IMG/VR virus record: IMGVR_UViG_3300047202_000060
Strand: one strand, 5' to 3'
DNA length: 64,000 nt
DNA from: a virus
Lineage: Duplodnaviria; Heunggongvirae; Uroviricota; Caudoviricetes
In this document: positions 9,265 through 49,284 of the stretch, in pieces
Layout: every line of letters begins with the position of its first letter
Numbering within the stretch: position 1 is the stretch's first letter
Translations under genes and position numbers: made by a program
Notes under the pieces: generated by a model
Told to the model about the DNA's origin: nothing
Databases searched by the model: none
Seen by the model: the letters and a program-made list of their open reading frames with translations, nothing else

Positions 9265-9275
9265 GACTTCACCCC

Positions 9276-22323: not shown

Positions 22324-23274
22324 CTAAGGCGTACTGCCCAAGATTATCTTCAATATTCCTGTACTCTGGACCAGAACTGGCTTCGCCCTTACGCTTGATA
22401 CGTAGTACGTGTATGCCCATTGTGTCCAATAGAAGTTGCGAGTTTCGAGTCGCCGCTTCCACGCCATCAATATGACAGGACCACGACCAGTATCATTCGG
22501 GAAGACGATATATGCGTAGCTATCTGTGCCTTGAGTCGTATCGGTGGGTGTTCCACCAATTCCTGTGCCTGACAGCAAAGGTGACTTCAAAACACGGCAA
22601 CCAGCGTACATACCTATCTCTCCTTCCATCATTCTGCCCAAATCATAAAGCGTATAACGCTTCGAATCAAGGAACTGAGTTGACTCCAACAGAAGTGCGG
22701 CGCACTTTGGAGAAACAATTAGGAAAGGTGGATTAGCTACGTCCACAATCCAGTTTTGCTCTTCCAATTTTGCCAACCCTTCAACGACTGTGTTGTAATC
22801 AATACCAGCAGAGGGAGATGAGGTTACTACAGCACCAGACTCGATTGTGTCTGCTACTAGAGCATCCAAATACTCCATAATGGCAAGTCCCATGTTTCGC
22901 AAGTGAGTTCTAACCCACTCTACGTTAGGGTAGTCTTCAAGCAGTATGTCTGACAAGTTAGTGGCAGAGAAAATTGGGTCCGTTACGGACACGTACCAAT
23001 TGCTCACACCCTTAGTTGTGGCAACCATACCGACTGATGGGTTAACTAGGTTCGCTTCCGTGATTGTACTTGCGTACATGTGGGTAAGGAACATACCACG
23101 AATCGTGTTACCTACCGCGCCTATTAGCTGGAAATCTTCCAGAGGCAGAGATAGGAAAACAAGAGGTCGTCTGGGTAGTTCGAAAACCTCACTATAAATC
23201 AGGAAGGGAGTTGCACCCAAACCCGTAGTGACGGTTGAAGCAGTTAAGGTCTCTTCAATTGTTATTTCTGGCAT
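22324..23274 (-). CDS. Major capsid protein (HK97-like fold)
   Basis: 316 aa, downstream of the scaffold and protease genes; MGLAIMEYLDALV, FLIVSPKCAALL, GEIGMYAGCRVLKS. Confidence 0.75.
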   Translation of the reverse strand: MPEITIEETLTASTVTTGLGATPFLIYSEVFELPRRPLVFLSLPLEDFQLIGAVGNTIRGMFLTHMYASTITEANLVNPSVGMVATTKGVSNWYVSVTDPIFSATNLSDILLEDYPNVEWVRTHLRNMGLAIMEYLDALVADTIESGAVVTSSPSAGIDYNTVVEGLAKLEEQNWIVDVANPPFLIVSPKCAALLLESTQFLDSKRYTLYDLGRMMEGEIGMYAGCRVLKSPLLSGTGIGGTPTDTTQGTDSYAYIVFPNDTGRGPVILMAWKRRLETRNFYWTQWAYTYYVSSVRAKPVLVQSTGILKIILGSTP

Positions 23275-26966: not shown

Positions 26967-27518
26967 TTACTTTCTCAATGGGGCTTTAGATATTTCAAAG
27001 TGGCTATTTTTACCAGCAGAAACGTATTGTCCACCAAGAGCACGAATTATTTGAGCAACTTTAGCGAAGTTTTCTGGTCCCAAAAATTGTGCTGGCTTTA
27101 CCATCACGAACATCGATGAACCATCCAAATCTATCTTCAATAAATCTATTACAGGCTCAAGAGCGGCTAGAATCTCTGTAACTCTAGGCGATTGTTCTGT
27201 TGGCTTAGGTGCTGATACTGGCGGTGTTGGTCCCAATGTCGATTGCGGTGTATTACCTGTTATCGGTTGCATCGGTGGATTCTGGAAAGTCTTAGGTTCA
27301 GCGGCTTTGGAAAAAACAGAATTCAACATTTTCAGTTCATTGTCAATTGATGACAGTTTTCCATAGATAAGCGTCAATGCAACATCTGGTTTAAGAAGAT
27401 GAACATCTTTTCCTTCTACCTTTATAGTGGTAATAGGAGAAGTGCTTTCTACATCTTTATCACTAACGAAACTACGTTTCTGTTCGTCTAGTTTTTCTTG
27501 TTCTACCATATTTTTCAA
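26967..27518 (-). CDS. Hypothetical protein with Pro-rich linker and small C-terminal domain
   Basis: C-terminal VKPAQFLGPENFAKVAQIIRALGGQYVSAGKNSHF; own promoter at about 27547-27560. Confidence 0.55.
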   Translation of the reverse strand: MKNMVEQEKLDEQKRSFVSDKDVESTSPITTIKVEGKDVHLLKPDVALTLIYGKLSSIDNELKMLNSVFSKAAEPKTFQNPPMQPITGNTPQSTLGPTPPVSAPKPTEQSPRVTEILAALEPVIDLLKIDLDGSSMFVMVKPAQFLGPENFAKVAQIIRALGGQYVSAGKNSHFEISKAPLRK

Positions 27519-27837: not shown

Positions 27838-28722
27838 TTAAACCTTGCGGTTAGTTTTCTTTGTAAAAATCTCGCTCTCATTTTCTTGATACCAATTATA
27901 AACCATCAGTCCTATTCCTGTCCACCAGAAGAAATGGCATATAATTCTAGGAAATCCTTTAGGCAATATCTTTGTAAGAAGAAATCCAAACTCCGCTGAT
28001 ACAAATCCCGCATATAATGGAATCTCCTTTTTTATTCTCTCAAATAGATTTGGTGTTGTCATACTTATTTGATAGTCTAACGCGAATAATGCCATTTCAA
28101 GTCCTATATCTACTCCATGTGTAGGTCTAGTAGCATTAACATTTTCTTCTTGACTCTCCCACCAAAAATCATGAACCGCTATTCCAAGACCTAACCAAAA
28201 GACTACATCAGTTATTAGATTCATATCTATCTTTTCTATGAATGCTTTAATGAAATCTATAATTTTATTTATTAAGTCTTGAATGCCAGTTATACTAAAA
28301 TCTAACTTTGGAAGATTTTTTATGATAGTTTTAATTGAATCAGGAACATTCAAAGTTTGTTTAATAGAAAGAGTTCTTCTTTTCTTAATAACTAGAAACC
28401 ATATTCCAGCGGAAGATAATATTGTGGTTAACGCAAAAATCAAACTAGCTAATATTCCTGTTATTAACAAGATTACGCTAGATAAACTAGAAATTGGTAA
28501 AAATAATCCTACCTTATCAAATAACCAAGTAGTAAATAAATACCATAATGGAAACCCAGCATATGGTATGAGAGAAATCGGTAACAAAAACATAGCCACA
28601 TTTCCCAACACTAAACCAGCAAATAATCCCGTCCAATCAGCTTCAAGAAATCCTAGAAGCATAAACAAAAATAGAAGTGCCAATGGAAAAGTCAAAAGAT
28701 ATTTCCGCAAACTATCGAACAT
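27838..28722 (-). CDS. Multi-pass membrane protein
   Basis: Several long hydrophobic stretches at both the N and C termini. Confidence 0.6.
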   Translation of the reverse strand: MFDSLRKYLLTFPLALLFLFMLLGFLEADWTGLFAGLVLGNVAMFLLPISLIPYAGFPLWYLFTTWLFDKVGLFLPISSLSSVILLITGILASLIFALTTILSSAGIWFLVIKKRRTLSIKQTLNVPDSIKTIIKNLPKLDFSITGIQDLINKIIDFIKAFIEKIDMNLITDVVFWLGLGIAVHDFWWESQEENVNATRPTHGVDIGLEMALFALDYQISMTTPNLFERIKKEIPLYAGFVSAEFGFLLTKILPKGFPRIICHFFWWTGIGLMVYNWYQENESEIFTKKTNRKV

Positions 28723-28760
28723 TACTTCACCTTAAAAGAAGAGAATAGTAAATGAAGTAT

Positions 28761-29681
28761 TTAAACCTTACGGTCTTCTTTCTTTTTTGGTGGATTGAGA
28801 TAATAGAATTGTCCTTTGCGATGGAGAAGTTTTGCAATAACGCTTCCGACTTTGGCTACACCATTTCCCAATTTACATGGTGATGGAGTAGGTGGTACTG
28901 GTGGTTCGGGTGGTGGAGTAGGAGTATTAGTTATTTCACTCAACTCTTTTGATAATTCTTCACAATTAAGTGGGTCATTTGCTGAATTCATCCATGGGTC
29001 TGTAGCATCGATTACCCCATAAGCTTCGTCAAAATAAGTATCCCAGAATTCCCAAGTCATCTGTTGTTCTGCACCCCAAGTCACGCATACTGGACCTGTT
29101 GCATTATAGGCTTTGATATAAACACAATGTCCACCGACAATCGGACTACCTGAAATAACAGTCCATGGTTGCCCAGCATTAAATTGATCTATAGCTGATT
29201 GTGGAACTGAAAATCCTGTATAAGCTCCTCTCAAGAGATAAATCGAATATTTTACTTCATTATGATTCTTAATCTTAATTTGGGCAAAAGCATAAATATT
29301 ATATAACTTTCCAGAGGCGGTCCAACCTAATTTTCTCCATTCATTCAAACTGTCAAGCATAACCAATCCACTATCTTTTCCACCAGATTCTTTAAAATAT
29401 TCGTTCTCAACTTCTTTATCCGTAATCTTTATTAGTTGACTCTGCTCAAAATCTTCGAATCTAAGAGTCATATGTGCTCGTCCAGCTATAACACAATCTC
29501 CATATTTATCGTTACCATACATATTTGTATCTGAGAAATTTGGAAAAGTTGAATCAATATCATAGATAACTGGCAATGGCGGTAAGTTCTTTTTTATCAG
29601 AAGTTTCTTTAATTGAAAAGTTCTAGGGTCAATTCTCTGTGGTAATTTCCCTAACTTGAAATTATTAAATCTAGCACTCAT
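28761..29681 (-). CDS. Papain-like (C1-clan) cysteine peptidase
   Basis: GNDKYGDCVIAG (Cys), VGGHCVY (His), VTWG; Pro-rich C-terminal linker. Confidence 0.7.
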   Translation of the reverse strand: MSARFNNFKLGKLPQRIDPRTFQLKKLLIKKNLPPLPVIYDIDSTFPNFSDTNMYGNDKYGDCVIAGRAHMTLRFEDFEQSQLIKITDKEVENEYFKESGGKDSGLVMLDSLNEWRKLGWTASGKLYNIYAFAQIKIKNHNEVKYSIYLLRGAYTGFSVPQSAIDQFNAGQPWTVISGSPIVGGHCVYIKAYNATGPVCVTWGAEQQMTWEFWDTYFDEAYGVIDATDPWMNSANDPLNCEELSKELSEITNTPTPPPEPPVPPTPSPCKLGNGVAKVGSVIAKLLHRKGQFYYLNPPKKKEDRKV

Positions 29682-30929: not shown

Positions 30930-31202
30930 TTAATATGATTTGTATTTTTGAAGAACCAATTTAGCATAATTCAAATAATCAAGTGCACCACGCATTGTAA
31001 TAAAAAAACGCATAGCTATTTCTTTTCGTAGAGTTTCATCATTTTGTTTCGGATTATCAAGAATCATTTTACAAACTTCAAGAATACGAAGAGACTTACC
31101 TTCTATAGTTTTGTTGTCAGAAATAAGAAGGGGAGAAGAAGGAGAAAGACTACAAATGAAAAAACCTTTATACCATTGCTCGAACTTTTCACTTTCTTTC
31201 AT
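30930..31202 (-). CDS. Hypothetical protein, possible C-terminal winged HTH
   Basis: Likely start ATG 31202 (MKESEK); TLRKEIAMRFFITMRGALDYL. Confidence 0.4.
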   Translation of the reverse strand: MKESEKFEQWYKGFFICSLSPSSPLLISDNKTIEGKSLRILEVCKMILDNPKQNDETLRKEIAMRFFITMRGALDYLNYAKLVLQKYKSY

Positions 31203-31210
31203 TGCAAATC

Positions 31211-32176
31211 CTACAGCAATTCTTTGAATAGCTCCACGAACATTGCTTTTTGCTCTTCCAAATTCTGAGATATTGAACGCCTTGTCTTCTCGAAAATTTG
31301 TGTTCCGCAACAAGTGTCGCCGACTACCCAGATTTCATTTGGCTTGAGTAACTTACAAACTTTTGCAAAGTTTCTCCAATATTGAAGAAGACGTTGACTT
31401 GCCAAAGTCTGATGAACTTCGAATTCCTGTCCGTTATAAGTATATTTCTCTGGGGCAATCGCGGCTACTTCGCCAACGTGAAAATCTGCTACAACTGCAA
31501 CCAAGAACTTAGCATCTTTGCACATCACTTTGAAGTATTCTTCAATATCAACGTGACCATTGCCCTCTTCAACATATTTCTTGGAATCTATGTCACCAGC
31601 TTCATAAATCTTTTTCTCGTTGTGGTCATAGACAAATGGTTTATAGAGCCATTTCTGTACTCTAATTCGTCCTTCCTTTGTTACGATTATGAAGTATGCG
31701 CCGATGTCTGTCTGGTAGTGGGCGAAGTTTGCATTTGCCTTTGGATATTCAAGAAACGTGCACCAACAAGGAACATTCACAATTCTGAATGGGTCATCAT
31801 CTATAGAACCACGAGTAGTATGTCCATGTGCCGCTACAGACATAGCAACATTATGCGGAAGTTTTCCTGAATACATATCGATCTGCCATTTCTCAGCATC
31901 TCTTTGGCTAACTGAATAAGGATTTATAGAACCCAATCTTCGCGTATGAGTCACAAAAGCAAGTTTGTCATTGTGAAGGTCTTCAAAACTCCACCAAGCC
32001 TTATGCTCGGCATCAAAACCCATAACTTTAAGTTTCAGGGCAATATCCTGCATCAAAAGAGTATCCAAACTTGCGTGGACGGTTGTTCCATCCCACAATT
32101 TAATCTTTGGATGCCAACTTTTCTCAAGTCGTTTCCAATTCTTATCTGCTTCTTTTTTCAAGTTCTTTGACATCAC
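31211..32176 (-). CDS. Calcineurin-like metallophosphoesterase, apparently circularly permuted
   Basis: Motif order is WDGTTVH (III), VTH (IV), AAHGH (V), then VVADFHVG (I) and WVVGD (II) at the C-terminus. Confidence 0.7.
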   Translation of the reverse strand: MMSKNLKKEADKNWKRLEKSWHPKIKLWDGTTVHASLDTLLMQDIALKLKVMGFDAEHKAWWSFEDLHNDKLAFVTHTRRLGSINPYSVSQRDAEKWQIDMYSGKLPHNVAMSVAAHGHTTRGSIDDDPFRIVNVPCWCTFLEYPKANANFAHYQTDIGAYFIIVTKEGRIRVQKWLYKPFVYDHNEKKIYEAGDIDSKKYVEEGNGHVDIEEYFKVMCKDAKFLVAVVADFHVGEVAAIAPEKYTYNGQEFEVHQTLASQRLLQYWRNFAKVCKLLKPNEIWVVGDTCCGTQIFEKTRRSISQNLEEQKAMFVELFKELL

Positions 32177-32268
32177 AAATCACATCTTATACATATCATA
32201 TCGTCCTATTTAAATGTTACGTTTCTCCTATACGTTTTTTGAGTAGAAGATAACGTTTATTTCTACGA

Positions 32269-32577
32269 TTAGGATGAAGAAATATATTGGTAACAAACTC
32301 TGTCCTCAACTATATGAATACCATCTCCACCAAACTGGTCCGATGTAAGGTCAAATTCTTGTCCATTAGGAAGTCTATTCCAAAAATGAACAACTCCTTT
32401 TACATCTCCTTGAAGAAGCAATCCGCCAAAAATATCTTGAACACATATCGCCGTCACATAACATTGTCCCGTACTTGGAGTATCAGGCTCAAAATCTGCA
32501 ATATAAGTTGTCTGTTGACACCAAGCTTTTTCAAACTTTTTCCGAAGTCTTTTTAAAACAACTTCAAGTTTTGTCAA
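32269..32577 (-). CDS. YunG-like protein
   Basis: PSTGQCYVTAICVQDIFGG...HFWNRL...DLTSDQF. Confidence 0.65.
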   Translation of the reverse strand: MTKLEVVLKRLRKKFEKAWCQQTTYIADFEPDTPSTGQCYVTAICVQDIFGGLLLQGDVKGVVHFWNRLPNGQEFDLTSDQFGGDGIHIVEDRVCYQYISSS

Positions 32578-33023
32578 GTGAACTGCACGACCATCTTAGA
32601 TGAATTTTTTACAAGTTCTTCTAAAGAAGGTCCTTTAACCATTGTCTTATATTCACTACAAGAACGTTTTGACCCATTACAATCGTGACCTTTGAAACAT
32701 TTAAGATAACTTTCATCTTGAGCCACCCATTCTCGTCCATAATTAGCACAAGTAATAGTAAAATGGTCCCATAAGCTGAACAATTGATTTAAAACAGAGA
32801 AATCATATTCTATGTTCTTATCTCTTATGTTTATGCCTATCTGTATATCGTTTACAAGTCTATCTAGTAATTGAAATTGTTTAGAAAGTTTGGACCGCCT
32901 AAAATCTTCGAGCGCATCTAATTCCTCAGTCATTTTTTCGGCTGTCCATTCTCCATCATTATTCCAATGGTCACTATTCCATTCATAAATCGTTTCCCAT
33001 TTCTGAGTCGTTATCATCGGCAT
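32574..33023 (-). CDS. Hypothetical protein
   Basis: First gene of the leftward block, after the TATA box at about 33056-33071. Confidence 0.5.
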   Translation of the reverse strand: MPMITTQKWETIYEWNSDHWNNDGEWTAEKMTEELDALEDFRRSKLSKQFQLLDRLVNDIQIGINIRDKNIEYDFSVLNQLFSLWDHFTITCANYGREWVAQDESYLKCFKGHDCNGSKRSCSEYKTMVKGPSLEELVKNSSKMVVQFT

Positions 33024-33086
33024 ATTTTACCACACAATAGTAATGTTTTGTAAACTATTTAAACTTTGCGGTTGCTTACTTTATAA

Positions 33087-33102
33087 TTAATCACTTGATT
33101 AA
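33087..33102. promoter_or_regulatory. Palindromic operator copy 3
   Basis: ttaatcacttgattaa, just upstream of the leftward promoter. Confidence 0.65.
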
Positions 33103-33485
33103 AATTTCACTCTAATAGGGTCATTTTTATACCTATTGTTTTATGACTAAAAAAATGAGATACCCATATTACCTCATATTTCCAAACCATAACCCTTAAA
33201 TAGAACTTCTTACATCTTAATATTCAATTACAAAATAACTCATTGGCAACAGGAAAAAGATTAGGCGATGCGAAAGTAAGGATATAACGCTTGTAACCAT
33301 TGCGGTCATCCGTGCCCGAAATCAAGTCAGCTTAACTACTTGCCGAAACTCGGCGTTCCCAAACAAATCCAAATGAGTTAACTAATTTTTAAGAAGTTAT
33401 TATTCAATTGGTTAATAGTAGTGGAAGGGGAGATAGTATAAGAGGGGGAACCAATATAGGACCAGTAGAGCAACAACGACTTATG

Positions 33486-33543
33486 CGACACACACACCCC
33501 GCGCCCGCGCAACACACACCGCGCCCGACACACACGCCGCAAC
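33486..33543. repeat. GC-rich patchwork repeat of CGACACACAC, CCGCGCCCG and CGCAAC units in the divergent intergenic region
   Basis: Each unit occurs twice; there are no T bases across 58 nt in an AT-rich genome. Confidence 0.7.
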
Positions 33544-33760
33544 GTTTAAATAGGAGTATTAACACATTCTGTTAGTAGTGTGGTGATAAGTACGCCAAAA
33601 AGATGTGAAGATGTAAAATGTGGTTGTCTAGCGGCTGATGGTACTTGCCTGATGCCGAAAGAAGACCTAAAGGAAAAATGTCCAGCACGAGAGACAGTCA
33701 TCAATGAGCATAAAGATAATTGGTTTGATGAACTCTATAAGCTGAAATTGAGGGATTAAA

Positions 33761-34048
33761 ATGGTAAAATATAGAACTAAGAAGTCTGGTGCTTGGGTAG
33801 CTCAGATGACAATTAAAGAACTTCTTAATAAGCTAGATGCTCTCGAACATCCAACTCTTGTTACTGGAAGTATAGGTCATGAAGCGGCTAGAGAAAGAGC
33901 GGCAAAGATTATTAGAGGAATAATTGAGAATACAATAGTTACTATCGATAATCAGAAAATCAAGGATGCCGAAGTTGAACTTGATGATGAAGACGATTGG
34001 GAGTCTGAGTTAGTCAACAAACACATCAAATGGTTCTTTGAAAGGTAA
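33761..34048 (+). CDS. Hypothetical protein
   Basis: In the rightward operon. Confidence 0.45.
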   Translation: MVKYRTKKSGAWVAQMTIKELLNKLDALEHPTLVTGSIGHEAARERAAKIIRGIIENTIVTIDNQKIKDAEVELDDEDDWESELVNKHIKWFFER

Positions 34049-34053
34049 ATGAT

Positions 34054-34287
34054 ATGGTAGAACTCATATACAAATACGCTAAATGTTCAGAATGTGGGAA
34101 AGAGGGTTTCCAATGGGGGGCACTTATAGAGAATACGTTCATATGTCACGATTGTATTGTTCTTATTGATAAAAAGTTAGACGACATGAAAGAAGAAGCT
34201 CGAAATAAAGCTATGACATATAGAACATTTAACATGAATCGAGACACAATTCCTTTAAGTGATAGAGATGAGACTCAGAAACCATAA
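34054..34287 (+). CDS. Small Zn-finger protein
   Basis: CSECG...CHDC. Confidence 0.5.
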   Translation: MVELIYKYAKCSECGKEGFQWGALIENTFICHDCIVLIDKKLDDMKEEARNKAMTYRTFNMNRDTIPLSDRDETQKP

Positions 34288-34441
34288 AAAGAAACTTGCT
34301 ATTCTTCTCGGTTATCAACTTAGCAATCTGGGTTGGATTGGAGCGTGGATGGCGGCAGAACATTATCTTCCTATGTTTGTTCCTTGCGTAATCCTTATAT
34401 GCTTGGCAGATGTATTAATCATATGGAAGGAATATAATTGA
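34259..34441 (+). CDS. Small membrane protein
   Basis: Two hydrophobic stretches. Confidence 0.4.
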   Translation: MIEMRLRNHKKKLAILLGYQLSNLGWIGAWMAAEHYLPMFVPCVILICLADVLIIWKEYN

Positions 34442-34884
34442 AAAACAAAGATTTTGAAGAATGTATAAAGTGCCATAGACTTCACCCGACAAGTATGAGA
34501 TGTCCGTGGTGTGAATCGGGAATCATATACTCTAACTTCGATTTCTTTAAAGCTATGCTTGCTCTTCAAAAAGGATTCCAGACCAAATATAAAGATCGAT
34601 TCAAAGGCAAGAAGAGAATCACTAAACTAGGCGATGCAATAGCGATAATTCAGGAAGCCTCAGAACTTATAGACGCTACGAACCGAAATAAGAAAGGTAA
34701 CAACTATAAATGGTGGTCCGATAAAGTCCACATGAGAGAAGAGCGACTTTTCGAGTTGGTTGACATCTGGCACTTCTTCATGCTCTACATGATAATTGAG
34801 AAAATATCGCCAGAAGAATTCTTCCAAACATATATCAAAAAACTCGGCGAAAACTACGCTCGACAGGAGAGCGGGGCATATTGA
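34438..34884 (+). CDS. Dimeric all-alpha dUTPase (MazG-like superfamily)
   Basis: IQEASELID...YKWW...ELVDIWHF...KKLGENYARQESGAY. Confidence 0.8.
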   Translation: MKNKDFEECIKCHRLHPTSMRCPWCESGIIYSNFDFFKAMLALQKGFQTKYKDRFKGKKRITKLGDAIAIIQEASELIDATNRNKKGNNYKWWSDKVHMREERLFELVDIWHFFMLYMIIEKISPEEFFQTYIKKLGENYARQESGAY

Positions 34885-35099
34885 GGAAGTCTTTACTATG
34901 CAAACTAGGACTCCATAAAAATGACATAAAACATTTAGAACTCTGTGTTAACATAGGTGATATGTGGGACGCTGGATTTACTCTCTATTACAAAGTTCTT
35001 AGATGTGAAAAATGTGGCACAATTCACAAGAAAGAAATCTCACAAAAAGAATATTGGAAACTTGAAGAAACATACTTTGTTGAGGTTGAAACAGTATGA
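34881..35099 (+). CDS. Small Zn-binding hypothetical protein
   Basis: LCKLGLH...CEKCG. Confidence 0.45.
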   Translation: MRKSLLCKLGLHKNDIKHLELCVNIGDMWDAGFTLYYKVLRCEKCGTIHKKEISQKEYWKLEETYFVEVETV

Positions 35100-35599
35100 C
35101 CGAACTCGATAACATCAAAGTAAGCGCAACCGTAATAGTCATATCTAAAGATGATAAAGTTCTCATAGTACAAAGACTACCAGATAAGGCGTTTCCTAAT
35201 CTATGGACTGTTGCTGGTGGAAAACTTCAAAGTGATGATGGAGAACAAAGGAGTGAAGGATTCCTTTATAATTCAGTAGAAGCATGTGCTCGAAGAGAAT
35301 TATTTGAAGAAACTGGTATTCATATCTGGAATACCAAACTTAACTATCTTTGCTCAATAACTACAATTTGGGGCGAAACCAGAAGAGTAATTCTAAGCTA
35401 TTATGTTATTCTTAATAAGGATGCAGATAAGATAAAACTTACTCTATCAGAATGCCAAGATGCTCGATGGATAGAAAATTATATGATAGATAGTTACAAT
35501 TTCATTCCAGACATTGGCGGCGAAATTAAAGAAGTTTTTAAAATTCTAAAACAAGAAAGAGAAGCAATTATGGAGAGAATCATCAAAAATGGTGCATAA
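35096..35599 (+). CDS. NUDIX hydrolase
   Basis: Nudix box with an insertion: WTVAGGK...EACARRELFEETGI. Confidence 0.85.
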   Translation: MTELDNIKVSATVIVISKDDKVLIVQRLPDKAFPNLWTVAGGKLQSDDGEQRSEGFLYNSVEACARRELFEETGIHIWNTKLNYLCSITTIWGETRRVILSYYVILNKDADKIKLTLSECQDARWIENYMIDSYNFIPDIGGEIKEVFKILKQEREAIMERIIKNGA

Positions 35600-35602
35600 T
35601 TA

Positions 35603-35806
35603 ATGTCTGACATTTTTCTACGATTACGAAAGGGGTCGGCAGATCGTCAAGCCCGTATAAACAAACTAAAGACTATGCTTCTCAATAAGGGTGAAAAAAC
35701 AGAAGAGCAAATAATTGCTCAGTTTTGCTATGAAGAAGCTGTATCAATCAGAATAGCAAACGAATATCTTTCAATTCTTAAGTTGGCTGGGATTATTCAC
35801 GAATAA
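35603..35806 (+). CDS. Small winged-HTH-like DNA-binding protein
   Basis: EEQIIAQFCYEEAVSIRIANEYLSILKLAGII. Confidence 0.45.
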   Translation: MSDIFLRLRKGSADRQARINKLKTMLLNKGEKTEEQIIAQFCYEEAVSIRIANEYLSILKLAGIIHE

Positions 35807-35955
35807 TCGCTTAACAAAAGACCGTTTCAAAATTCGCATAAAAATTTGTATGTTAACGAGAACTGCTTGCTACAACGACTGTAGAAAATGCCTAACAGCT
35901 ATCAATAAAATGAACACTAAAAAAGGGAAGAAAAGTAAAGAATAAAGGACTCTTT

Positions 35956-36447
35956 CTAAGGAGTAGTTTCTCCGTCTTTAAATCCCGATAAGTCCCATCC
36001 AGTTCCAGAACCGCTTCCTTCTTCGCCAATTATGTCGTCCGCTCCACCAGTTCTTGGTCGATATTTGTATAGACGGCAACCTGTAATTTTCAATGTCGAG
36101 TTCGATACTGCATTACCACTATTGTCATATAACATTCCTTCCAACGAAAACTCTGTTTCAGATTGGAATAGATTCAGCAATAGGTCTTCTTGTCCTGAAT
36201 CTGCAAAGTACCATCGAGTTATAGTGAAAGTTACTTCGAAACTTCCAGCAGAGTGTACGGGTGTTCTACAACCATAGATTGATTCTGGTCCGCCCTTATA
36301 GCCCATTTGGATGTCCATACCCTCAACTACACCAACAGTATATGTATGTGCGCCGCCATGGGTTATAATTTTGACAACCATGTTTACGCATCTAAAGGGT
36401 CCCAAAACAGTATTCGTAACGGGATTTGTATATGTACTTCTAGTCAT
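35956..36447 (-). CDS. Tail tube protein
   Basis: 163 aa; VGVVEGMDIQM...GSFEVTFTITRWY...LKITGC...IIGEE.S, a tube-protein-like strand order; own TATA box at about 36490. Confidence 0.6.
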   Translation of the reverse strand: MTRSTYTNPVTNTVLGPFRCVNMVVKIITHGGAHTYTVGVVEGMDIQMGYKGGPESIYGCRTPVHSAGSFEVTFTITRWYFADSGQEDLLLNLFQSETEFSLEGMLYDNSGNAVSNSTLKITGCRLYKYRPRTGGADDIIGEEGSGSGTGWDLSGFKDGETTP

Positions 36448-36571
36448 TTACATCATCTTCTTATAGTGACTTTAATAGAACCAGACCAAGTATTTAAATC
36501 TGTCGGTCTTGCTTAACATATTTTGATGTAATACATTTACCATAACCTTTAAATAGGGGTCTTTACATTTA

Positions 36572-37066
36572 TTGTTATCAGGAAGTGTGGATGTTAATAT
36601 GCAATTTGCACGAATAAAAGGATATAAAAAGGACCTAAATACAGGCGACATAATTCTAATAGCAAATGTAACTGATACAGACGGTAAACCATTAATTGAT
36701 ACTAGCGGTACTGGAATGGCAGATATTGAAATTCGTTTTTCTCAGGAAGGACTTCAGAAATTAATTCGAGAAGAACTACCAACTGAGGAACAAAGAATGC
36801 AAGAAATATTGGACAAAATCCATCAAATTCGAGTGAACCGTGTTCTTAATATCGAAAAAATGGATGATGCCATTGAAGAGATAAAGAAAAATGCTGAAAA
36901 AGATTTCACTAATTGCAATGACAAAATTGAGATTATGAGAATGAGCGCAATCTACAGAGTAAAACTTTTGGCATCAGCACAGAAGCGATTGCTTTCAAAG
37001 TTCTCTATGCAAGAAGAGTCCGAACTGAGTCTTCAACTTACGAAGTTGAGACAAGCTAAGAGTTAA
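36572..37066 (+). CDS. Hypothetical helical protein (terminase small subunit candidate by position)
   Basis: Follows the promoter at 36540-36555, two genes before terL. Confidence 0.4.
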   Translation: MLSGSVDVNMQFARIKGYKKDLNTGDIILIANVTDTDGKPLIDTSGTGMADIEIRFSQEGLQKLIREELPTEEQRMQEILDKIHQIRVNRVLNIEKMDDAIEEIKKNAEKDFTNCNDKIEIMRMSAIYRVKLLASAQKRLLSKFSMQEESELSLQLTKLRQAKS

Positions 37067-37254: not shown

Positions 37255-38841
37255 TTGCCAAAAGGTATGTTTGATAAAGAGACAGAACTTTTACAGAAGT
37301 TCAAAAAGAAAGATATTATTGAGTTAGAAGACTATCGTAAATGGCGTGAACATTGGCGTATAGAAGGTCCAGTAAAGTTTGCTTATCAGGTTCTCAGAAT
37401 AGACCCAAATACTGGCAAACCTCTGATTCTCTCAGACGGACAGAAAGAATTTCTTGAAGACGTAGGTATGAACGGAATTAGACTTGCAATTATCACGGCT
37501 GGACGTGGCTCAGGAAAGACTTTTGTTTTAGCTGTTTATATTATGTGGAGAATCTTTACACATGAAAAATATAGCGTTTCGTGTATGGGTGGTTCTCAAG
37601 AACAGTCAGACAAAATCGCATCTTATATTCAAGGTTGGATTAGGAATAACTCAGTTTTGGAAAGTTATACTCTCAAAAATATTCAAAGAGAAACATTCAC
37701 TTATTCGGAAGGTGATGCGAGATTTCATGCTTGCTCAGGTACATCAGTTCGGGGTCCGCATACTCATGACCTGATTATAGATGAGCAATCGGCTGGTGAA
37801 GAAGCTGGTGGCGGAAAGTTTATTAAAGCCGCAATGTGGGAAGTTTCTACAAGTCCAGACATTCACATAATTCAAGCCTCTACCGCTCAATATATTCACG
37901 GAGATTTCTTAATCACATGGAATAATGCTGAAAAGTTAGGATATAAACGTTATCAATGGGCGATTGCCAAACACACTAGCGGAGAATTAGACCCTTATAA
38001 AGTCTATGAAGATACTAATCCTAAACATTGGTTAACAAATGTTCCATGGATACCACAACTCAATATTGAAGTTCTTCGTGTCAAAGAGGGAAATGATAAA
38101 TGGCTAGTTGAAGCTTTAGGCGGCATAAGTATGTCATCTGGTCTGGTGCTTAACCCAGCAGATTTTGGAGTTGCAATTTGCAAAGCTACTTGTGATATAT
38201 GTCAACCTTATACAGATGGAATATGTCTTGAGTTTGTCCAGAGAGTTCTTATGATGGAAGGAATTCCATTAAAAGATTTGCCAATAAGTACAGAACAAGC
38301 TATAAACGAATATATTCATAATCGAGTGCTAGGAATTGATTGGGGTAGAGGAAGTCCTACTGCATATGTTGTGCTCGGACAATTTAGAGAATGGGTTTTC
38401 GTTCTTGAAGCACATGAGACAGTAGGATTGACAGACCAAGAAAAACTTGATTTGGCTGTAGAACTTTGTAAAAAATGGCAATGTGAAGTTATTCGTCCAG
38501 ACCCTAGAGAATGGGCACTTAATGGCTGGCTTTCAGAACGTGTAGAAGCTGGCGTACACGAATTGTTTACTGGTCCCGAAGGTGGAAATGAAAAATATAA
38601 ATATGTAGCTACAATGAAAAAATTCTTTGAACGACATAAAGTGTGTATTCCACGTCATCAGGATAATGACGATTTAATTCGAAGTCTGAAAAACTTGACT
38701 TATGACGAAACTGGAAAAATCCGTAAACAAGACGACCATTCAGCAGATGCAATGATTTATGCTATTAGTTACTATGAAGAAGTTGACAATGGAGACAATT
38801 GGCAAGTTAGTAAAGGGGATGCTGGCGTAAATCTTTGGTAG
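37255..38841 (+). CDS. terL: Terminase large subunit
   Basis: AGRGSGKT Walker A, LIIDEQ Walker B, AST coupling motif, GIDWG, RPDP and KQDDHSADAMIYA nuclease motifs. Confidence 0.92.
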   Translation: MPKGMFDKETELLQKFKKKDIIELEDYRKWREHWRIEGPVKFAYQVLRIDPNTGKPLILSDGQKEFLEDVGMNGIRLAIITAGRGSGKTFVLAVYIMWRIFTHEKYSVSCMGGSQEQSDKIASYIQGWIRNNSVLESYTLKNIQRETFTYSEGDARFHACSGTSVRGPHTHDLIIDEQSAGEEAGGGKFIKAAMWEVSTSPDIHIIQASTAQYIHGDFLITWNNAEKLGYKRYQWAIAKHTSGELDPYKVYEDTNPKHWLTNVPWIPQLNIEVLRVKEGNDKWLVEALGGISMSSGLVLNPADFGVAICKATCDICQPYTDGICLEFVQRVLMMEGIPLKDLPISTEQAINEYIHNRVLGIDWGRGSPTAYVVLGQFREWVFVLEAHETVGLTDQEKLDLAVELCKKWQCEVIRPDPREWALNGWLSERVEAGVHELFTGPEGGNEKYKYVATMKKFFERHKVCIPRHQDNDDLIRSLKNLTYDETGKIRKQDDHSADAMIYAISYYEEVDNGDNWQVSKGDAGVNLW

Positions 38842-43388: not shown

Positions 43389-43783
43389 TTGTGATGGAAG
43401 AACAAATAAGTGATGGTCTAACTAATTCACAAAGATGGCGTTTTAGACACCCAGAAAAAGTCAAAGAATATAGTGAAAAATTAGCAGAAGATAATAGAAA
43501 AATTAGAAAAAAACTAAAAGAAGAAATTTATCATATGCTTGGAAATAAATGTTCTAATCCAAATTGCTTGGTTCCAAATGGATGTAGAGATGTTCGATGT
43601 CTCCAAATCGACCACATTAATGGTGGCGGACAAAAGTCAAGAAAACAATTTCAAGCAAATTACATAAAATATTATACTTTTGTTTTACAACAACTCAAAG
43701 CTGGTTCTAAGGACTACCAGTTACTTTGTGCTAATTGTAACTGGATAAAACGAGTAGAAGCAAAAGAATGGGGATGGAGATAA
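43385..43783 (+). CDS. HNH endonuclease (family A, copy 2)
   Basis: LGNKC...C...LQIDHINGGG...QLLCANCNWIK. Confidence 0.8.
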   Translation: MIVMEEQISDGLTNSQRWRFRHPEKVKEYSEKLAEDNRKIRKKLKEEIYHMLGNKCSNPNCLVPNGCRDVRCLQIDHINGGGQKSRKQFQANYIKYYTFVLQQLKAGSKDYQLLCANCNWIKRVEAKEWGWR

Positions 43784-46700
43784 TTATGCCAACATGGACT
43801 GTATCTATAAATGGAACTACTCGAAAATATAAGACATTTGAAATAAATAGAAAAGTTAGAATGGATTCTCCACCAGAATTTACAGCCATGATTGAGTATG
43901 CAGATGATGTTGACTTTAATAACGTCATTACTTTTCTACGTGACGACAAAGTTGAGTGGAAAGGTTTTGTCGAAGACCTAGAAATTGATTGGGATGAAAA
44001 TGGACGTTATCTCCTTCTTGGTGGACGTGACGTTACGTTGCTTCTTTGGAGAAAATATGTAGAAAACTTTAATAATCCTATTCCTAAAACTGGTGGATTC
44101 TTTGGGACAGTTAGTGCAAGCGAACTTATTCAATTCTTACTTAGAACACCACGTTCAGACCTTCCCATAAATCAAAAAACAGATGATGATTGTGTAGTTC
44201 AGCAATATCAATTTAATAAGGAAGGATGGGGAATAGATTCTTCTCGATTCAAAAGTCTTGATGCACATAATACAGATACAGCATATGGGGACATAAATAC
44301 TACTATTTTGCGAAAACGAAATTTATATTGGTCAAATAGTGGTAGTCCATTTCAAGGAACTGTAAAAGTAGTTGATGATGTTACTTCACTTGGATGGGAA
44401 ACTTGTGATGGTAGTGGTTGCGGGGGTGGACATGGCATTTCGCCATATATTAATTTAAATACTGAAGCAAGTTGGATTCATTCTCATACAGGAATAAATG
44501 ATGTAGCTGAATTTACATTTGAAGACCTTTCAAGTGCTACAGCCATAAATAGTGTTGTGCTTGTAATAACATGGAAGCCAGATACAACTTGGAATCCATT
44601 TATAAATTCCGATTGTCACGTTCAAATTTGGAAAAATTCAATTGGTGGTTGGTGTGAAATAGGAGATTTTGGTGGACGAGACCCACCATGGAGTAATCCA
44701 TGGCATATAGTAGAATTTGACATTTCTTCACTTATTCAAATTGTTGATGATATAAATAATATAAAAGTAAGATTTATTGAAACTGGTAGTCTTTCTACAA
44801 GTATTACATATGCAAGTCTTTCAATAAGTTATGCAGAAAATGGAACTCAATCAACTGATGATTGGGTCTCAATGACGTTTGATGATGAAACAATAACGGG
44901 AATATATTTTGAATGTAGAGCACATCCAGATAATTATCCACGAAATTACAAAATAACATGTAGTGGTGCTAGAGAAGATTTTTCAGATTATATAGAAGAA
45001 GACCCAAACAATCATATTACATTAGAGGATTCAAATCAAACTTGTGATTTTGGTTCTTACCAAGATGAAATCGCATATTTATATAAAGATTATGGCGAAG
45101 GTCCTTTAGGAGATTTTGAAGAATACTTCTCATTTGAGGTAGATAGTTCTGAACCTCATCCCTATGCATTTATTCCGTGGTGTCTCTCTAATTATCTCGA
45201 AGATTATAAAACTCTACTTAATACTCCTTCACACTACTTTACTGCAATTGAAGTAGGAAATTCAAATAATATATTAACTCTTAACGTTGCAGTTCAAGAT
45301 GTTGGTGGATTAAGATATGCACCGAGTCCACCTACTATTCTCTTTAATACACGTTATTTTGTTAAAGCTACAAGAAATGGCTTTGGACTCAGATACCAAA
45401 TTTTCGATAACTCTTTAATGAGAACTGAAGATTTGATTAAAGATACAACACTTATAAGTAATGCTGGTACATTCCAATATAGATTCCAAGCAATAACCTA
45501 TAATGGCTTTGAATGGTCAACAGAATTTGCACATACTATGGATAGCATTGGTACTGGTGGAGAACAAGTAACCCCTAACGGCGATTTTGAAAGTGGCAGT
45601 TTTCTACCTTATTGGGCTGGGGGTGCGTATTCAATAGTTGGCGGTGGTGCTCAACATTCTGGAAATTGGTGTTGTAAAATTACTGCTGTAGATTCTGATA
45701 TATATCGAACTAATGATATGAATATTGACAAACTTTATGTAACATCTGCTTCAATGTGGCACAATTCACCTATAGGTTCGACATTTGTTATACATTTGAT
45801 TTTTACAGATGCAACTTATTTTGATATTACCGTAAATGGAACTGGAATTTGGACAGAGCAAGACCTTTTAGCATATTGGGCTGATGGAAAATCTTTGAAA
45901 AATATTGAAATTGAACATAATACAGCCATAATGTATATTGACGATATTTCGGTATATGAAGATAGTGGCTGGTCAACAATGGGTGGAGATGCAACATATA
46001 GTACCGATACCGTTGATGAAATTGAGGGAATTGGTTGTGAAAAAATTGAGGCAACTGCTGGACAGAAATACTATTTTGAAGAAAACATTACTCCTATGGA
46101 TGAAAAAAGAGTTGATGGTTGGGTACGTGTTCCCGCACCAGCATCCGAAGAAATAAACACAGATATTCATATTCCAGATGATGATACTGATGTAGATTTT
46201 AGTGACCCTCATCAATGGACAGGTGTAAATACATCTCCATGGCTTAACGATGATGATGATACAAACTATATATTAAGTGATGCTGTAATTCAAGGGTCAT
46301 TTGGAAATTATTGGTGGTTTGAAAATCAGATAGATTCAAAATATGGTTCATTTATTCCAAATAGCAACTGTAGAGTCTATTTCAAAGCAAAGTTATTTGA
46401 CGGAGAAGGTGGACATGCAACTACAATTCCTTTAGGCATTAGATTATGGGTTCAACATCTTAATGACGGGACAGGGGAATGGACATCCGATATAGGCTGG
46501 GCAGATTGCACATCTACATCATACGAAACAGGTTATTTTGTAATTGACTCTTATCTAACGACTTTGGATGATTGGAAAAACGCAAAATTTAAAATTGATA
46601 TAGGAAACATTGTGGGTGGCGGTGCAGATAAAGGTGGAATAATAGTTACATATGCATATCTCCATATGGAAGGAACTGGCTATATGGGTGAAATATTCTT

Positions 46701-49284
46701 AATGAAACTATATAATCATGATGTTATTGCTGGTCCAGACCCAGATATTGATAACTGTTGTGCTGGTGTTTCAGTCGCTCTTGACCCTACAGCTATAAGC
46801 GACCAAGATAAATGGAGATGGAATGTTTATGCAAACGGAGTATATAGTAGTATTCCCGTTCATTATAACATTCTTTCAACAGAAGCAGTAACAAGTGATA
46901 CGTGGTATAAACTCAGACTCTATACTAAAAAAGACTCAAGTGCTGGTTATGCCAAACTTTATGACATCACAAGTGGAAGTGAAGTAGAACTTTGCGAATG
47001 TACTGGATATTTGGGATTCTTAGATAATAGTAGTTATGGTCAACCAGATAGATATGATTTCGAAGCCAGATTCGGAACTTATAATTCTGGAATTGTTTAT
47101 CTTGATTGGACACAAGTTCAAGAAAGAGGTCCAACTCACAGTACGGGATATGTTTATTCTGGATATGGTTCAGATATTATTCTGGTAAATAAAACTGATA
47201 ACATCTATCCAGATATAATTCATAGTTGGGGACCACGTTTAATGAATAATCTTAAAATTTCAATAACGGAAAATGACCCTAATCATGGATGGGAGATTTC
47301 ACAAATCTATCTATACAAAACTGACCCAATAAAATATCTGGTAGTCGATGGATATATGTCAGACCCGACAACAAAAGTATCTGACTTTTCTACACCAATA
47401 GAAGAGAAATTCACATTTTCTGCCATTGACTATATTCCATGTGAAGATACAGATATTGGAAAACAAGTTTTTGTTGTGAACTTTGGTTCTACTGTTGGAG
47501 AACTTGTATCTTTTGATAACGACTTGAGAGAATGGCGTGTTGCCACAGCATCAGAATTTATCGTAAGCGGATTCGTAATAAATGTAGATGGTGGAACTGG
47601 TGCTGGTGTATTATCTGCCGATGCTGTAGTTTGCTATGCTGGTGGTCCATATCTTACTCTTGGAGATGAATTCAATAACTTTGAATATTCTACTCCTATA
47701 GGTCCAATAAATATTCCGAAAAACAGATTGTTCGATGTTCTTTGGGACTTATGTATAACTATAACCGATGACTATATGCCATATGAGTGGTGGGTAGGTT
47801 ATGATATAAATAATAAATTCCATATTGGAAGTCATCGCGGAACAGATAAATCTATTACAGGTACAAATACAATTACTTTCACAACTGGCGTAAATATGGG
47901 TAGTGTAAAATATGCAAAATCTTCGAGAGATACTTATCAAAGATGCCAAGTTATAGGTAGCGGAGAAGGAAATACTCAGGTAAATACAAGTTCATTCTGG
48001 GAATCTGATGAAAATGCAATGGATGAAATACATGGATTTATAGAAGATATTTTCACTCAGAAACAAGTTACAAGTCCAAAAATTGCAAATCGTTATGCTA
48101 AAGTAAAATTGAAACTCGATGCTAGTCCAAAAAGAAAGAACGCAATAAGATGTATAATTAACTATGATACTTATGTAACATTTGATTATGAAGACCCAAC
48201 ACATTCAGGTGCATATGATACTTATGATGTTGGAGATGATGTCAATCTTAATGATGTTTTCACAGGTCTTGGTCCTAGCGATAATAGTCAAGGTAGTTAT
48301 AGAATTTGGAATATAAAGAAAACTGTGGATAATAATGGAGAAATTGTAACTTTAACTTGTCAAGCACCATATTTGGATATTGGAAATGTTTGGACTCAAA
48401 TATGGAATGAATTAAAACGAATAGGTATAGTTGGAAGTTTTGCTCAGGATTGGGCTGGTGAAGGGACAGATACGGGGCTTATAAGTACAGACAAAATAGC
48501 TACGCTCTTTACAGCAACAGCAAAAAATGAGGAAACTGATACTTCTACTCCATCTGATAGCCCTAATTGGTACACAACTCCAACCCCACTACATGGTGCT
48601 GGTTGGAAATCTGATAGTGGCAATCTATCAATTTATGGCGGAGATTCTGGTGGACTAGGAGAAATGGAAGTTGAAGCTAAATATGCGGCTGTCTATCAAG
48701 ATGATGGATATACAATTGTAACTACAACTCCAATTCCAGCAAATGCAATCCTTGTTCCAGCAGATATTCCAATAACTCAAGAACCGAAATTTACAGGTTC
48801 ATTCAAGATTATAGAACCTATCGGTACTAATTTTACATTCTGGAATGATAATGATTTTGTAGAGTTTGGAATATTCAATCGAGATGCAAACACGGGATAT
48901 AAATTCAGAGTAGTATGTCATCCAGCGGGTACGTTCATATTGTATGCAGTTTATGTAAATAGAAGTACCCCCATATTGAAACCAATATGTACGGTTTTCT
49001 CAAGTGATGGTATTACCAAGAATTATAAATATAAAGTTGAAATAATCACAGACTATACAAAAAGTTCAATAAGTACCGTTACATTTAATGTTTATCAAGA
49101 AACAGATAGTAACGGTAATCCTTTGGATGACCCAGCTTCTACACAATTAAGTGCAGTTTTCTCAAATGTAGATAAAAGTCTCGTGGTTAGACCAATATAT
49201 GTTCATGCTTATGGTGTTGGTGGAGCAAATCTAAGATGTATCATGAACTTCTATGAATTAAAATGTGAAAGGGACATAATATGA
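43768..49284 (+). CDS. Large baseplate hub / tail tip protein with inserted beta-sandwich modules
   Basis: Hub-like N-terminus (VEWKGFVEDLE...GRD) and C-terminal part (TYQRCQVIG, DVGDDV...YRIWNIKK); 1838 aa; D/S/T/W-rich. Confidence 0.7.
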   Translation: MGMEIIMPTWTVSINGTTRKYKTFEINRKVRMDSPPEFTAMIEYADDVDFNNVITFLRDDKVEWKGFVEDLEIDWDENGRYLLLGGRDVTLLLWRKYVENFNNPIPKTGGFFGTVSASELIQFLLRTPRSDLPINQKTDDDCVVQQYQFNKEGWGIDSSRFKSLDAHNTDTAYGDINTTILRKRNLYWSNSGSPFQGTVKVVDDVTSLGWETCDGSGCGGGHGISPYINLNTEASWIHSHTGINDVAEFTFEDLSSATAINSVVLVITWKPDTTWNPFINSDCHVQIWKNSIGGWCEIGDFGGRDPPWSNPWHIVEFDISSLIQIVDDINNIKVRFIETGSLSTSITYASLSISYAENGTQSTDDWVSMTFDDETITGIYFECRAHPDNYPRNYKITCSGAREDFSDYIEEDPNNHITLEDSNQTCDFGSYQDEIAYLYKDYGEGPLGDFEEYFSFEVDSSEPHPYAFIPWCLSNYLEDYKTLLNTPSHYFTAIEVGNSNNILTLNVAVQDVGGLRYAPSPPTILFNTRYFVKATRNGFGLRYQIFDNSLMRTEDLIKDTTLISNAGTFQYRFQAITYNGFEWSTEFAHTMDSIGTGGEQVTPNGDFESGSFLPYWAGGAYSIVGGGAQHSGNWCCKITAVDSDIYRTNDMNIDKLYVTSASMWHNSPIGSTFVIHLIFTDATYFDITVNGTGIWTEQDLLAYWADGKSLKNIEIEHNTAIMYIDDISVYEDSGWSTMGGDATYSTDTVDEIEGIGCEKIEATAGQKYYFEENITPMDEKRVDGWVRVPAPASEEINTDIHIPDDDTDVDFSDPHQWTGVNTSPWLNDDDDTNYILSDAVIQGSFGNYWWFENQIDSKYGSFIPNSNCRVYFKAKLFDGEGGHATTIPLGIRLWVQHLNDGTGEWTSDIGWADCTSTSYETGYFVIDSYLTTLDDWKNAKFKIDIGNIVGGGADKGGIIVTYAYLHMEGTGYMGEIFLMKLYNHDVIAGPDPDIDNCCAGVSVALDPTAISDQDKWRWNVYANGVYSSIPVHYNILSTEAVTSDTWYKLRLYTKKDSSAGYAKLYDITSGSEVELCECTGYLGFLDNSSYGQPDRYDFEARFGTYNSGIVYLDWTQVQERGPTHSTGYVYSGYGSDIILVNKTDNIYPDIIHSWGPRLMNNLKISITENDPNHGWEISQIYLYKTDPIKYLVVDGYMSDPTTKVSDFSTPIEEKFTFSAIDYIPCEDTDIGKQVFVVNFGSTVGELVSFDNDLREWRVATASEFIVSGFVINVDGGTGAGVLSADAVVCYAGGPYLTLGDEFNNFEYSTPIGPINIPKNRLFDVLWDLCITITDDYMPYEWWVGYDINNKFHIGSHRGTDKSITGTNTITFTTGVNMGSVKYAKSSRDTYQRCQVIGSGEGNTQVNTSSFWESDENAMDEIHGFIEDIFTQKQVTSPKIANRYAKVKLKLDASPKRKNAIRCIINYDTYVTFDYEDPTHSGAYDTYDVGDDVNLNDVFTGLGPSDNSQGSYRIWNIKKTVDNNGEIVTLTCQAPYLDIGNVWTQIWNELKRIGIVGSFAQDWAGEGTDTGLISTDKIATLFTATAKNEETDTSTPSDSPNWYTTPTPLHGAGWKSDSGNLSIYGGDSGGLGEMEVEAKYAAVYQDDGYTIVTTTPIPANAILVPADIPITQEPKFTGSFKIIEPIGTNFTFWNDNDFVEFGIFNRDANTGYKFRVVCHPAGTFILYAVYVNRSTPILKPICTVFSSDGITKNYKYKVEIITDYTKSSISTVTFNVYQETDSNGNPLDDPASTQLSAVFSNVDKSLVVRPIYVHAYGVGGANLRCIMNFYELKCERDII

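Follow-up and report, generated by a model that had tools for sequence, protein, structure and literature searches.

We analyzed a stretch of viral DNA of 64,000 nucleotides (IMG/VR record IMGVR_UViG_3300047202_000060; the whole stretch is hereafter called the window) from a tailed virus of ∼140 kb, and characterized a permuted metallophosphoesterase gene located on its minus strand (positions 31211–32173). An earlier note on this DNA had claimed that the gene encodes a circularly permuted calcineurin-like phosphoesterase. This claim is supported by reciprocal, swapped profile matches and by profile-profile alignments with hhalign, which show that the polypeptide of 320 amino acids is circularly permuted, conserved and, by its descent, a genuine calcineurin-like metallophosphoesterase. 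The superfamily of these enzymes is among the best-studied ones and includes protein phosphatases, Mre11, DP1, LpxH and purple acid phosphatases, which are characterized by five motifs in a fixed order, I (DxH), II (GD), III (GNH[DE]), IV (H) and V (GHxH). The motif order along the chain of the viral protein (hereafter, the query) is III, IV, V, I, II; the protein is a superfamily member by descent but a topological variant. Taken as a whole, a permuted superfamily member with the activity and origin proposed below is very probably the best explanation of the data.

The listed open reading frame (ORF) spans positions 31211–32176 on the minus strand, with a GTG at 32176, an ATG as the next codon at 32173 and the stop codon at 31211–31213; residue numbers below refer to this ORF. 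The ATG at 32173 is the likely start codon, because an identical database protein has 320 amino acids and relatives begin with MSK or MAK. A collection of 5.8 billion proteins contains 56 homologues of 300–335 amino acids, found in JGI, ENA, NCBI and Logan assemblies on contigs of up to 140 kb. All of them are unnamed or called 'hypothetical' and are without a precomputed Pfam domain. The motif strings quoted in the earlier note are all present in the ORF, and key residues in them are invariant in a 29-sequence alignment of the permuted family (A1), on which the statements of invariance in this text are based. The invariant residues include G30, T31 and H34 (WDGTTVH), H77 (VTH), H117 and H119 (AAHGH), D157 (DIG), D231 and H233 (ADFHVG), G286-D287 (VVGD), and E308-Q309 (EEQ).

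The swapped order of the two halves was observed in both directions of profile comparison. An exhaustive search of 1.84 billion representative proteins with the A1 profile (E ≤ 0.001) found 230 proteins, the best canonical-order match having an E-value of 2e-53. Except for the permuted proteins P0058 and P0059, the matches outside the family are proteins of ∼260–300 amino acids that contain the two pieces in the opposite order, so that A1 positions 10–188 correspond to residues ∼100–290 and positions ∼205–305 to residues ∼3–105 of the canonical proteins. In the recomputed domain table, at least 69 proteins have both pieces in canonical order and none has two pieces in the query order. In the reverse direction, a profile built from 60 canonical-order proteins only (A2) was compared with all six translated reading frames of the window and matched only this ORF, as two swapped pieces (A2 positions 109–270 to ORF residues 24–186, independent E-value 1.1e-32; A2 positions 6–105 to ORF residues 221–321, 1.3e-22). 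The same two correspondences were obtained with hhalign, which aligned ORF residues 24–182 with canonical positions 101–257 (99.9% probability, E-value 2.7e-32) and residues 225–321 with positions 3–97 (99.7%, 1.1e-25). Each half of the protein matches the complementary half of one and the same canonical-order metallophosphoesterase clade, rather than unrelated folds.

When the permuted members are cut ∼22 residues before motif I and re-joined, they form a full-length collinear alignment with the canonical relatives. The proposal that the C-terminus joins onto the N-terminal WDGT was borne out, since the query is collinear with the canonical protein P0062 across the junction: its C-terminal ...ELFKELL followed by its N-terminal PKIKLWDGT parallels ...ELLCML-PKNAV-IKIYSGT of P0062. 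The query segment ...KKYVEEG is the counterpart of the canonical C-terminal ...ERYVQI.

The protein consists of two modules joined by a linker, all encoded on the minus strand. The first module (residues 24–186; positions 31619–32107) corresponds to the canonical C-terminal part and includes motifs III, IV and V, as well as the PCW and QxDIG blocks. Motif III is present as the variant G30-T-T-V-H34 (32075–32089), in which H34 aligns with the catalytic motif III His and V33 stands at the place of the Asn ligand. The canonical relatives have G[ST]xYH at this place, and the block aligns with GPGNHD of the PolD subunit DP1. Motif IV is the invariant H77 (VTH; 31946–31948), which follows model strand 72–77; the residue does not vary in the canonical clade either, where it is H153 of P0062. 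Motif V, H117-G-H119 (AAHGH; 31820–31828), is invariant and aligns, via the canonical profile, with GHVH (H563/H565) of DP1 (PMC4996933). The second module (residues 221–321; 31214–31516) corresponds to the canonical N-terminal strand-helix-strand-helix unit and includes motifs I and II and the L-E-E-Q helix, directly after which the protein ends. Its invariant motif I, D231-F-H233 (31478–31486), follows strand 224–230 and aligns with SDIHVG (D363/H365) of DP1; its invariant motif II, G286-D287 (31316–31321), follows strand 281–285 and aligns with GD407 of DP1, both alignments again being via the canonical profile. The linker (residues 187–220; 31517–31618), as delimited by the de-permuted alignment, is unmatched by the canonical profile, and its ∼35 residues comprise the tail of the old C-terminus (...KKYVEEG), the leader of the old N-terminus and, at 213–220, a short helix. 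The motif assignment of the earlier note could be refined accordingly: GTTVH34, H77 and H117xH119 represent motifs III, IV and V, respectively. PCW, QxDIG and L[ED]EQ are clade-specific conserved blocks, which the canonical relatives carry too.

In terms of topology, the unit that opens the canonical chain has moved to the C-terminus (residues 221–321); it runs from strand 1 (motif I) through a hairpin and helix 1 to strand 2 (motif II) and helix 2. The rest of the domain, with motifs III, IV and V, now comes first (residues 24–186), the linker joins the old C- and N-termini, and the new ends lie in the loop between helix 2 (motif II) and strand 3 (motif III).

The link to the superfamily runs through the canonical relatives. 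Among them, P0078 (28.6 bits), P0085 (24.8 bits) and P0130 (32.1 bits) pass the gathering score of the Pfam family PF00149 (21.5 bits), as does P0097 with 22.6 bits over positions 2–189 of 191. By homology, the query can be assigned to the superfamily transitively, from its halves to the canonical relatives and from these to PF00149. The best PDB sequence matches of A2 are five versions of DP1, the small subunit of the archaeal polymerase PolD (E-values 1e-4 to 1e-3), with Mre11/SbcD lower, and the A2-DP1 alignment lines up motifs I, II, III and V. An AlphaFold2 (AF2) model of P0062 has a predicted local distance difference test score (pLDDT) of 94.7 and a predicted TM-score (pTM) of 0.92. Foldseek finds 282 matches of this model at E ≤ 0.001, with DP1 first at 4e-9. 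In VIA structural alignments it superposes on DP1 with a Z-score of 19.2 (root-mean-square deviation 2.8 Å, 218 residues), followed by MJ0936 and the B-subunit of Pol delta (16.2), LpxH (15.2), Vps29 (14.8) and Mre11/SbcD (14.2–14.6). The P0062 matches extend along the full length of the protein. These model comparisons show the phosphodiesterase domain of DP1 to be the solved protein structurally closest to the canonical clade, then MJ0936, polymerase B-subunits and Mre11. Relatives also weakly match PHROG 284 ('exonuclease') and PHROG 7339 ('DNA repair exonuclease').

The AF2 model of the query, built with A1, is a single compact domain (pLDDT 86.2, pTM 0.87) in which both modules exceed a pLDDT of 90, residues 191–210 are at a lower pLDDT of 74–75, and a helix (213–220) lies in the linker. 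The model is consistent with the four-layer alpha/beta/beta/alpha sandwich fold of the superfamily. In P0062, the secondary-structure elements are strand 2–8 (DxH), a hairpin, helix 35–53, strand 58–62 (GD), helix 82–93, strand 101–105 (GTPYH), a helix, three strands (H153), a helix and a strand (motif V). The query starts at the counterpart of strand 101–105 with strand 24–27, then GTTVH34, and has the same elements after it; it ends with helix 213–220, strand 224–230 (D231xH233), a hairpin, helix 258–277, strand 281–285 (G286-D287) and helix 306–320. In the models, the orders of secondary-structure elements in the two proteins are thus cyclic shifts of each other, and the structure prediction, with its one confident compact domain, agrees with the permutation proposed in the earlier note.

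The nine best chains in VIA alignments of the query model are all metallophosphoesterase folds (Z 4.7–6.0), including DP1 (6.0), 1nnw, Vps29, MJ0936, LpxH and polymerase B-subunits, and they cover about half of the model. Such half-domain matches are expected for a permutant, because the aligner depends on sequence order. Six of the nine fall within model residues 14–204 and reach the C-terminal part of the target (e.g. residues 48–165 of 165 in 1s3l), and the other three (DP1 and two Pol delta structures, 6p1h and 3e0j) extend back to earlier target residues. Query residues 19–180 superpose on the C-terminal two-thirds of solved metallophosphoesterases. Structure searches of the ESM Atlas align only residues ∼20–191 of the query, and the nearest clusters in its language-model search are viral Metallophos clusters (0.95–0.96).

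The swapped order of the halves hides the enzyme from standard annotation tools. The query has no match in Pfam even at E ≤ 10, PF00149 included, and none in PHROGs and NCBIfam. PDB sequences were matched neither by the single protein nor by the family profile, a tblastn search of 50,697 GenBank phage records returned nothing, and Foldseek found nothing in the PDB for the query model at E ≤ 0.001. Since Pfam, PHROGs, NCBIfam and Foldseek all miss the enzyme, every source calls it hypothetical.

Both orders, permuted and canonical, were found in related contigs, and their distribution bears on the origin of the permutation. From the de-permuted alignment we computed a maximum-likelihood tree with 19 permuted and 125–130 canonical rows, near-identical permuted members being left out. 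All permuted proteins lie on one side of a single branch (Shimodaira-Hasegawa-like approximate likelihood ratio test, SH-aLRT, 99–100), their sister group consists of the canonical proteins P0060–P0063 (99), and further canonical proteins, among them the ones encoded in loci L012 and L008, branch outside (87). The tree shows the permuted clade nested within a clade of canonical-order tailed-virus proteins; the permuted order is derived and arose once on this phylogenetic evidence, because the canonical order is common to the whole superfamily and the permuted proteins form one nested clade. The gene order of related viruses supports the derived single origin. More than 20 genes in the same order are common to the window, locus L017 and loci L014/L012, of which L017 has the permuted enzyme and L014/L012 the canonical one, the terminase large subunit (TerL) being 57% identical in each case. 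In all three the enzyme gene occupies the same slot, between homologues of window genes 26967–27518 and 35956–36447, and is transcribed away from the terminase gene.

The most economical route to the permuted order, we infer, is a tandem duplication that would have been followed by in-frame fusion and loss of both outer parts, because the linker is composed of the old C-terminal tail and the old N-terminal leader. A six-frame search with A2 detected neither a second copy nor a vestige of the enzyme gene in the window, and no tandem copies are present in 21 related loci, each of which holds one copy, fully canonical or fully permuted. Short 'half' proteins provided no evidence of split genes, P0112 and P0117 being known as proteins only, without DNA. 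P0149 was rejected as a half-protein since its start is miscalled, and the open frame in locus L021 extends back to profile position 58. The contigs of the nearest canonical sisters P0060–P0063 are 1–3.4 kb long, too short for gene context. Searches for more loci with TerL returned nothing with the single query, and with an alignment only the L012 contig and the distant locus L015 (24% identity over 146 residues).

Side observations on the relatives concern shorter and longer proteins. The ESM Atlas contains viral clusters of 178–210 amino acids (52–347 members) that superpose on residues ∼20–191 of the query only (TM-scores by row 0.63–0.77). These could be either stand-alone 'motif III–V' half-proteins, that is, split enzymes, or shortened gene calls; if real, they bear on an origin of the permutation by fission and fusion. 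The canonical relatives P0082 (635 amino acids) and P0192 (572 amino acids) are interrupted by a LAGLIDADG homing-endonuclease insert. The insert of P0082 looks like an intein, because an intein splicing (Hint) domain was detected in this protein as well. Inteins usually interrupt important enzymes, at sites that are conserved. The model is also matched by an ESM Atlas cluster of 732 amino acids with LAGLIDADG_3.

The active site was compared with that of DP1, whose metal ligands are D363, H365, D407, N453, H500, H563 and H565 (PMC4996933). Via the A2-DP1 and de-permuted alignments, D363, H365 and D407 correspond to D231, H233 and D287 of the query, N453 to V33, H563 and H565 to H117 and H119, and the motif III His to H34. 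H500 (motif IV) lies outside the profile alignment and was assigned to H77 by motif order. Six of the seven metal ligands (D231, H233, D287, H77, H117, H119) and the catalytic H34 are invariant, and even the divergent proteins P0058 and P0059 (∼30% identity to the query in the case of P0059) retain the catalytic Asp and His. The full superfamily set of seven ligands (Asp, His, Asp, Asn, His, His, His) with the motif III His is not complete in the query. Judged from the alignments, the site is under selection but not fully canonical, because six ligands and the His are invariant and the Asn is replaced. From the fold, the pTM and the conservation pattern we infer that the ligands converge in three dimensions.

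One sandwich domain would gather D231, H233, D287, H77, H117, H119 and H34 around two metal ions, and we consider it fairly probable that such an assembled two-metal site hydrolyzes phosphodiester bonds. Nucleic acid is the leading candidate for its substrate, in which case the enzyme would act as an exo- or endonuclease in viral DNA replication or recombination or in host DNA breakdown. This tentative assignment is based on three observations: the nearest structures are nucleases, relatives match exonuclease PHROGs, and canonical relatives adjoin PolB or NrdD. Several observations weigh against an active permuted nuclease of duplicative origin. The motif III Asn place is occupied by Tyr in at least 90% of the canonical viral relatives (Y110 in P0062) and by Val, Ala or Ser in the permuted clade. 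The latter three cannot bind metal, therefore a protein ligand is missing from one metal site, and the loss could lower or alter the activity. The family-B DNA polymerase (PolB) of the window has its own exonuclease domain, therefore a proofreading role for the enzyme is not needed. The gene neighbours are too little conserved to fix a substrate, and no duplication intermediate was found in the window or in the 21 related loci.

The replaced ligand also raises the question of whether the protein is permuted but catalytically dead, serving as a structural or regulatory subunit in the manner of Vps29 and the eukaryotic polymerase B-subunits. The acidic position next to the lost Asn (V33) holds Ala, Gly, Ser or Gln in permuted members and Glu in the nearest canonical relatives, the best structural matches include Vps29 and inactive B-subunits, and the gene stands at the head of an operon running into structural genes. 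However, D231, H233, D287, H34, H77, H117 and H119 are invariant and kept in P0058 and P0059, while the inactivated homologues (Vps29 and eukaryotic B-subunits) are without these catalytic residues (PMC4996933), and a dead subunit therefore appears unlikely. Similarly doubtful is an active permuted enzyme with a non-DNA substrate, i.e. a phosphodiesterase for small molecules or signalling nucleotides (cyclic oligoadenylates, cyclic nucleotides, Ap4A) that would serve nucleotide metabolism or blunt host defence signalling. In favour of this possibility, degradation of signalling nucleotides has been proposed for calcineurin-like enzymes of phages (PMC7824862), the MJ0936-type phosphodiesterase ranks second among the structural matches of the canonical relative (Z 16.2), dUTPase_2-like and NUDIX genes are present in this region of the window, and an NrdD gene adjoins one canonical relative. 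Yet the best structural and sequence matches are the DP1 and Mre11 nucleases, the PHROG matches of relatives are to exonuclease families, and no linkage to a known counter-defence gene was seen. The remaining explanations deny that there is a permuted enzyme at all. Apart from the unusual motif order, nothing suggests that the ORF arose by mis-assembly or by read-through of two adjacent, decaying partial gene copies, and the same order and length recur in ∼55 distinct proteins from independent assemblies, at 30–87% identity and with invariant catalytic residues, while the model is a single confident domain; an assembly join, the artefact considered in the earlier note, is excluded by this recurrence down to 30% identity, and any such artefact is extremely improbable. 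A chance resemblance of motifs in a protein of another fold would account for the lack of direct Pfam, PHROGs, NCBIfam and PDB sequence matches and for the empty Foldseek search (E ≤ 1e-3), but it is hardly conceivable in view of the reciprocal profile matches of 1e-22 to 1e-32 per half, the transitive Pfam membership and the structural matches.

Returning to the permuted, active enzyme, comparison with known systems shows it to be closest to the canonical viral metallophosphoesterases (G[ST]xYH; P0060–P0063 and those of loci L005–L013), which are homologous to it over the whole domain (E-values down to 2e-53). Common to both are DxHxG, GD, L[ED]EQ, G[ST]xxH, THx, [HD]xH, PCW, QPDIGG and WLY, and both occur in one kind of genome, that of tailed viruses encoding PolB, MCM and archaeal LonB; a syntenic virus has the gene in the same slot. 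The query differs in its swapped modules, its ∼35-residue linker and new termini, and the change of the motif III Tyr to Val, Ala or Ser. Moreover, the permuted form is unrecognized by Pfam, PHROGs and Foldseek, whereas some canonical relatives pass PF00149.

Among solved proteins, the DP1 3'-5' proofreading exonuclease (PDB 5ihe; PMC4996933) is the best structural match of both P0062 and the query (Z 6.0 over half a domain for the latter), with motifs I, II and V aligned, as well as the His of motif III. In contrast to DP1, the query is without the OB (oligonucleotide/oligosaccharide-binding) domain and the N-terminal region, has the Asn453 equivalent replaced and is permuted in order; no DP2 partner was seen in the window, and PolB has no zinc-finger domain at its C-terminus, the one to which B-subunits dock. 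A function as a polymerase subunit like DP1 is not supported, given the missing OB and zinc-finger domains. The query also falls outside the DP1/B-subunit family as a single domain of 320 amino acids beside a PolB that ends without a cysteine-rich domain, and the NCBIfam DP1 model is matched by one relative only, with 21.5 bits against a cut-off of 445. It can be speculated, although we regard it as quite improbable, that the whole clade, canonical and permuted, branched off from the DP1/B-subunit lineage as virus-borne enzymes without an OB domain, which would act in trans as exonucleases with PolB or the replisome; the permutation and the loss of the motif III Tyr/Asn would have retuned the metal site and shifted the termini, giving a new docking surface or substrate preference.

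Mre11/SbcD, from the nuclease branch of the superfamily, have the same fold and catalytic motif set as the canonical relative (Z 14–14.6), the structural alignments covering the phosphodiesterase domain only. Compared with them, the query appears too short for a capping domain, has an altered motif III and is permuted. No SbcC/Rad50 family was detected among the neighbours scanned in the window (27841–29681, 30933–31202 and 32272–37063) or among the called genes of loci L016 and L017, many of these genes being without a Pfam match. The MJ0936/YfcE-type proteins (PDB 1s3l, 1su1) are minimal single-domain enzymes that match the canonical relative with Z 16.2 and the permuted protein with Z 5.3; they differ from the query by a GNCD or GNHD motif III, the canonical order, and the absence of the PCW and QPDIG blocks. 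In the full-text literature searched, whose coverage is incomplete, we found no described natural circular permutation in this superfamily, the matches being to permuted genomes or other domains. The feature is real and is a new topological variant of a known superfamily. With respect to folding, the two-sheet sandwich tolerates having the strand-helix-strand-helix unit that normally comes first placed at the end of the chain. For evolution, the case is a clean one: the permutation arose once, the sister group has the canonical order, and a syntenic virus carries a canonical gene in the corresponding slot. Engineers who wish to split or permute metallophosphoesterases are offered a natural site for the cut.

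The window encodes an archaeal-type LonB protease (848–3136, minus strand), an MCM helicase (3177–5201, minus strand), a capsid-like protein (22324–23274), the terminase large subunit (37255–38841) and PolB with its own exonuclease domain (56936–59392, plus strand). Since LonB, MCM and PolB are markers that point to an archaeal host, the element is probably a large tailed virus of archaea. Directly upstream of the enzyme gene is a YunG-family gene (32269–32577, minus strand; PF24585, E-value 4e-25), which belongs to a family of unknown function and is not found beside the permuted gene in the other loci examined. The enzyme gene is preceded by its own 92-nt gap, which contains TTTAAATA (32208–32215, minus strand), 35–42 nt upstream of the ATG; as read from the sequence, this could be a TATA box of archaeal type. 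On the far side of the divergent intergenic region are a dUTPase_2/MazG-like pyrophosphatase (34438–34884, plus strand) and a NUDIX hydrolase (35096–35599, plus strand), which form a small nucleotide-hydrolase neighbourhood around the enzyme gene.

The downstream ORF (30930–31313, minus strand), which has no family match, overlaps the enzyme gene by 103 nt in its listed form. An in-frame ATG at ∼31202 gives a product of 90 amino acids that starts just past the enzyme stop codon, and a homologue of this product (42% identical) lies directly downstream of the permuted gene in locus L016 (10918–11229). At 8782–9944 (plus strand) of that locus, AAA_28 and CobA/CobO/BtuR-like genes precede the permuted gene; there is no terminase block as in the window and L017, and PolB is found there instead, 3.5 kb upstream. 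The canonical relatives are located near PolB (L005–L007 and L013), NrdD (L009) or LonB (L008). Farther along the window are two large adjacent ORFs on the plus strand, one of 1838 amino acids (43768–49284) that has no Pfam match and is partly conserved in L014 and L016, and one of 1590 amino acids (49281–54053) with DUF2341 and an InlB B-repeat-like domain.

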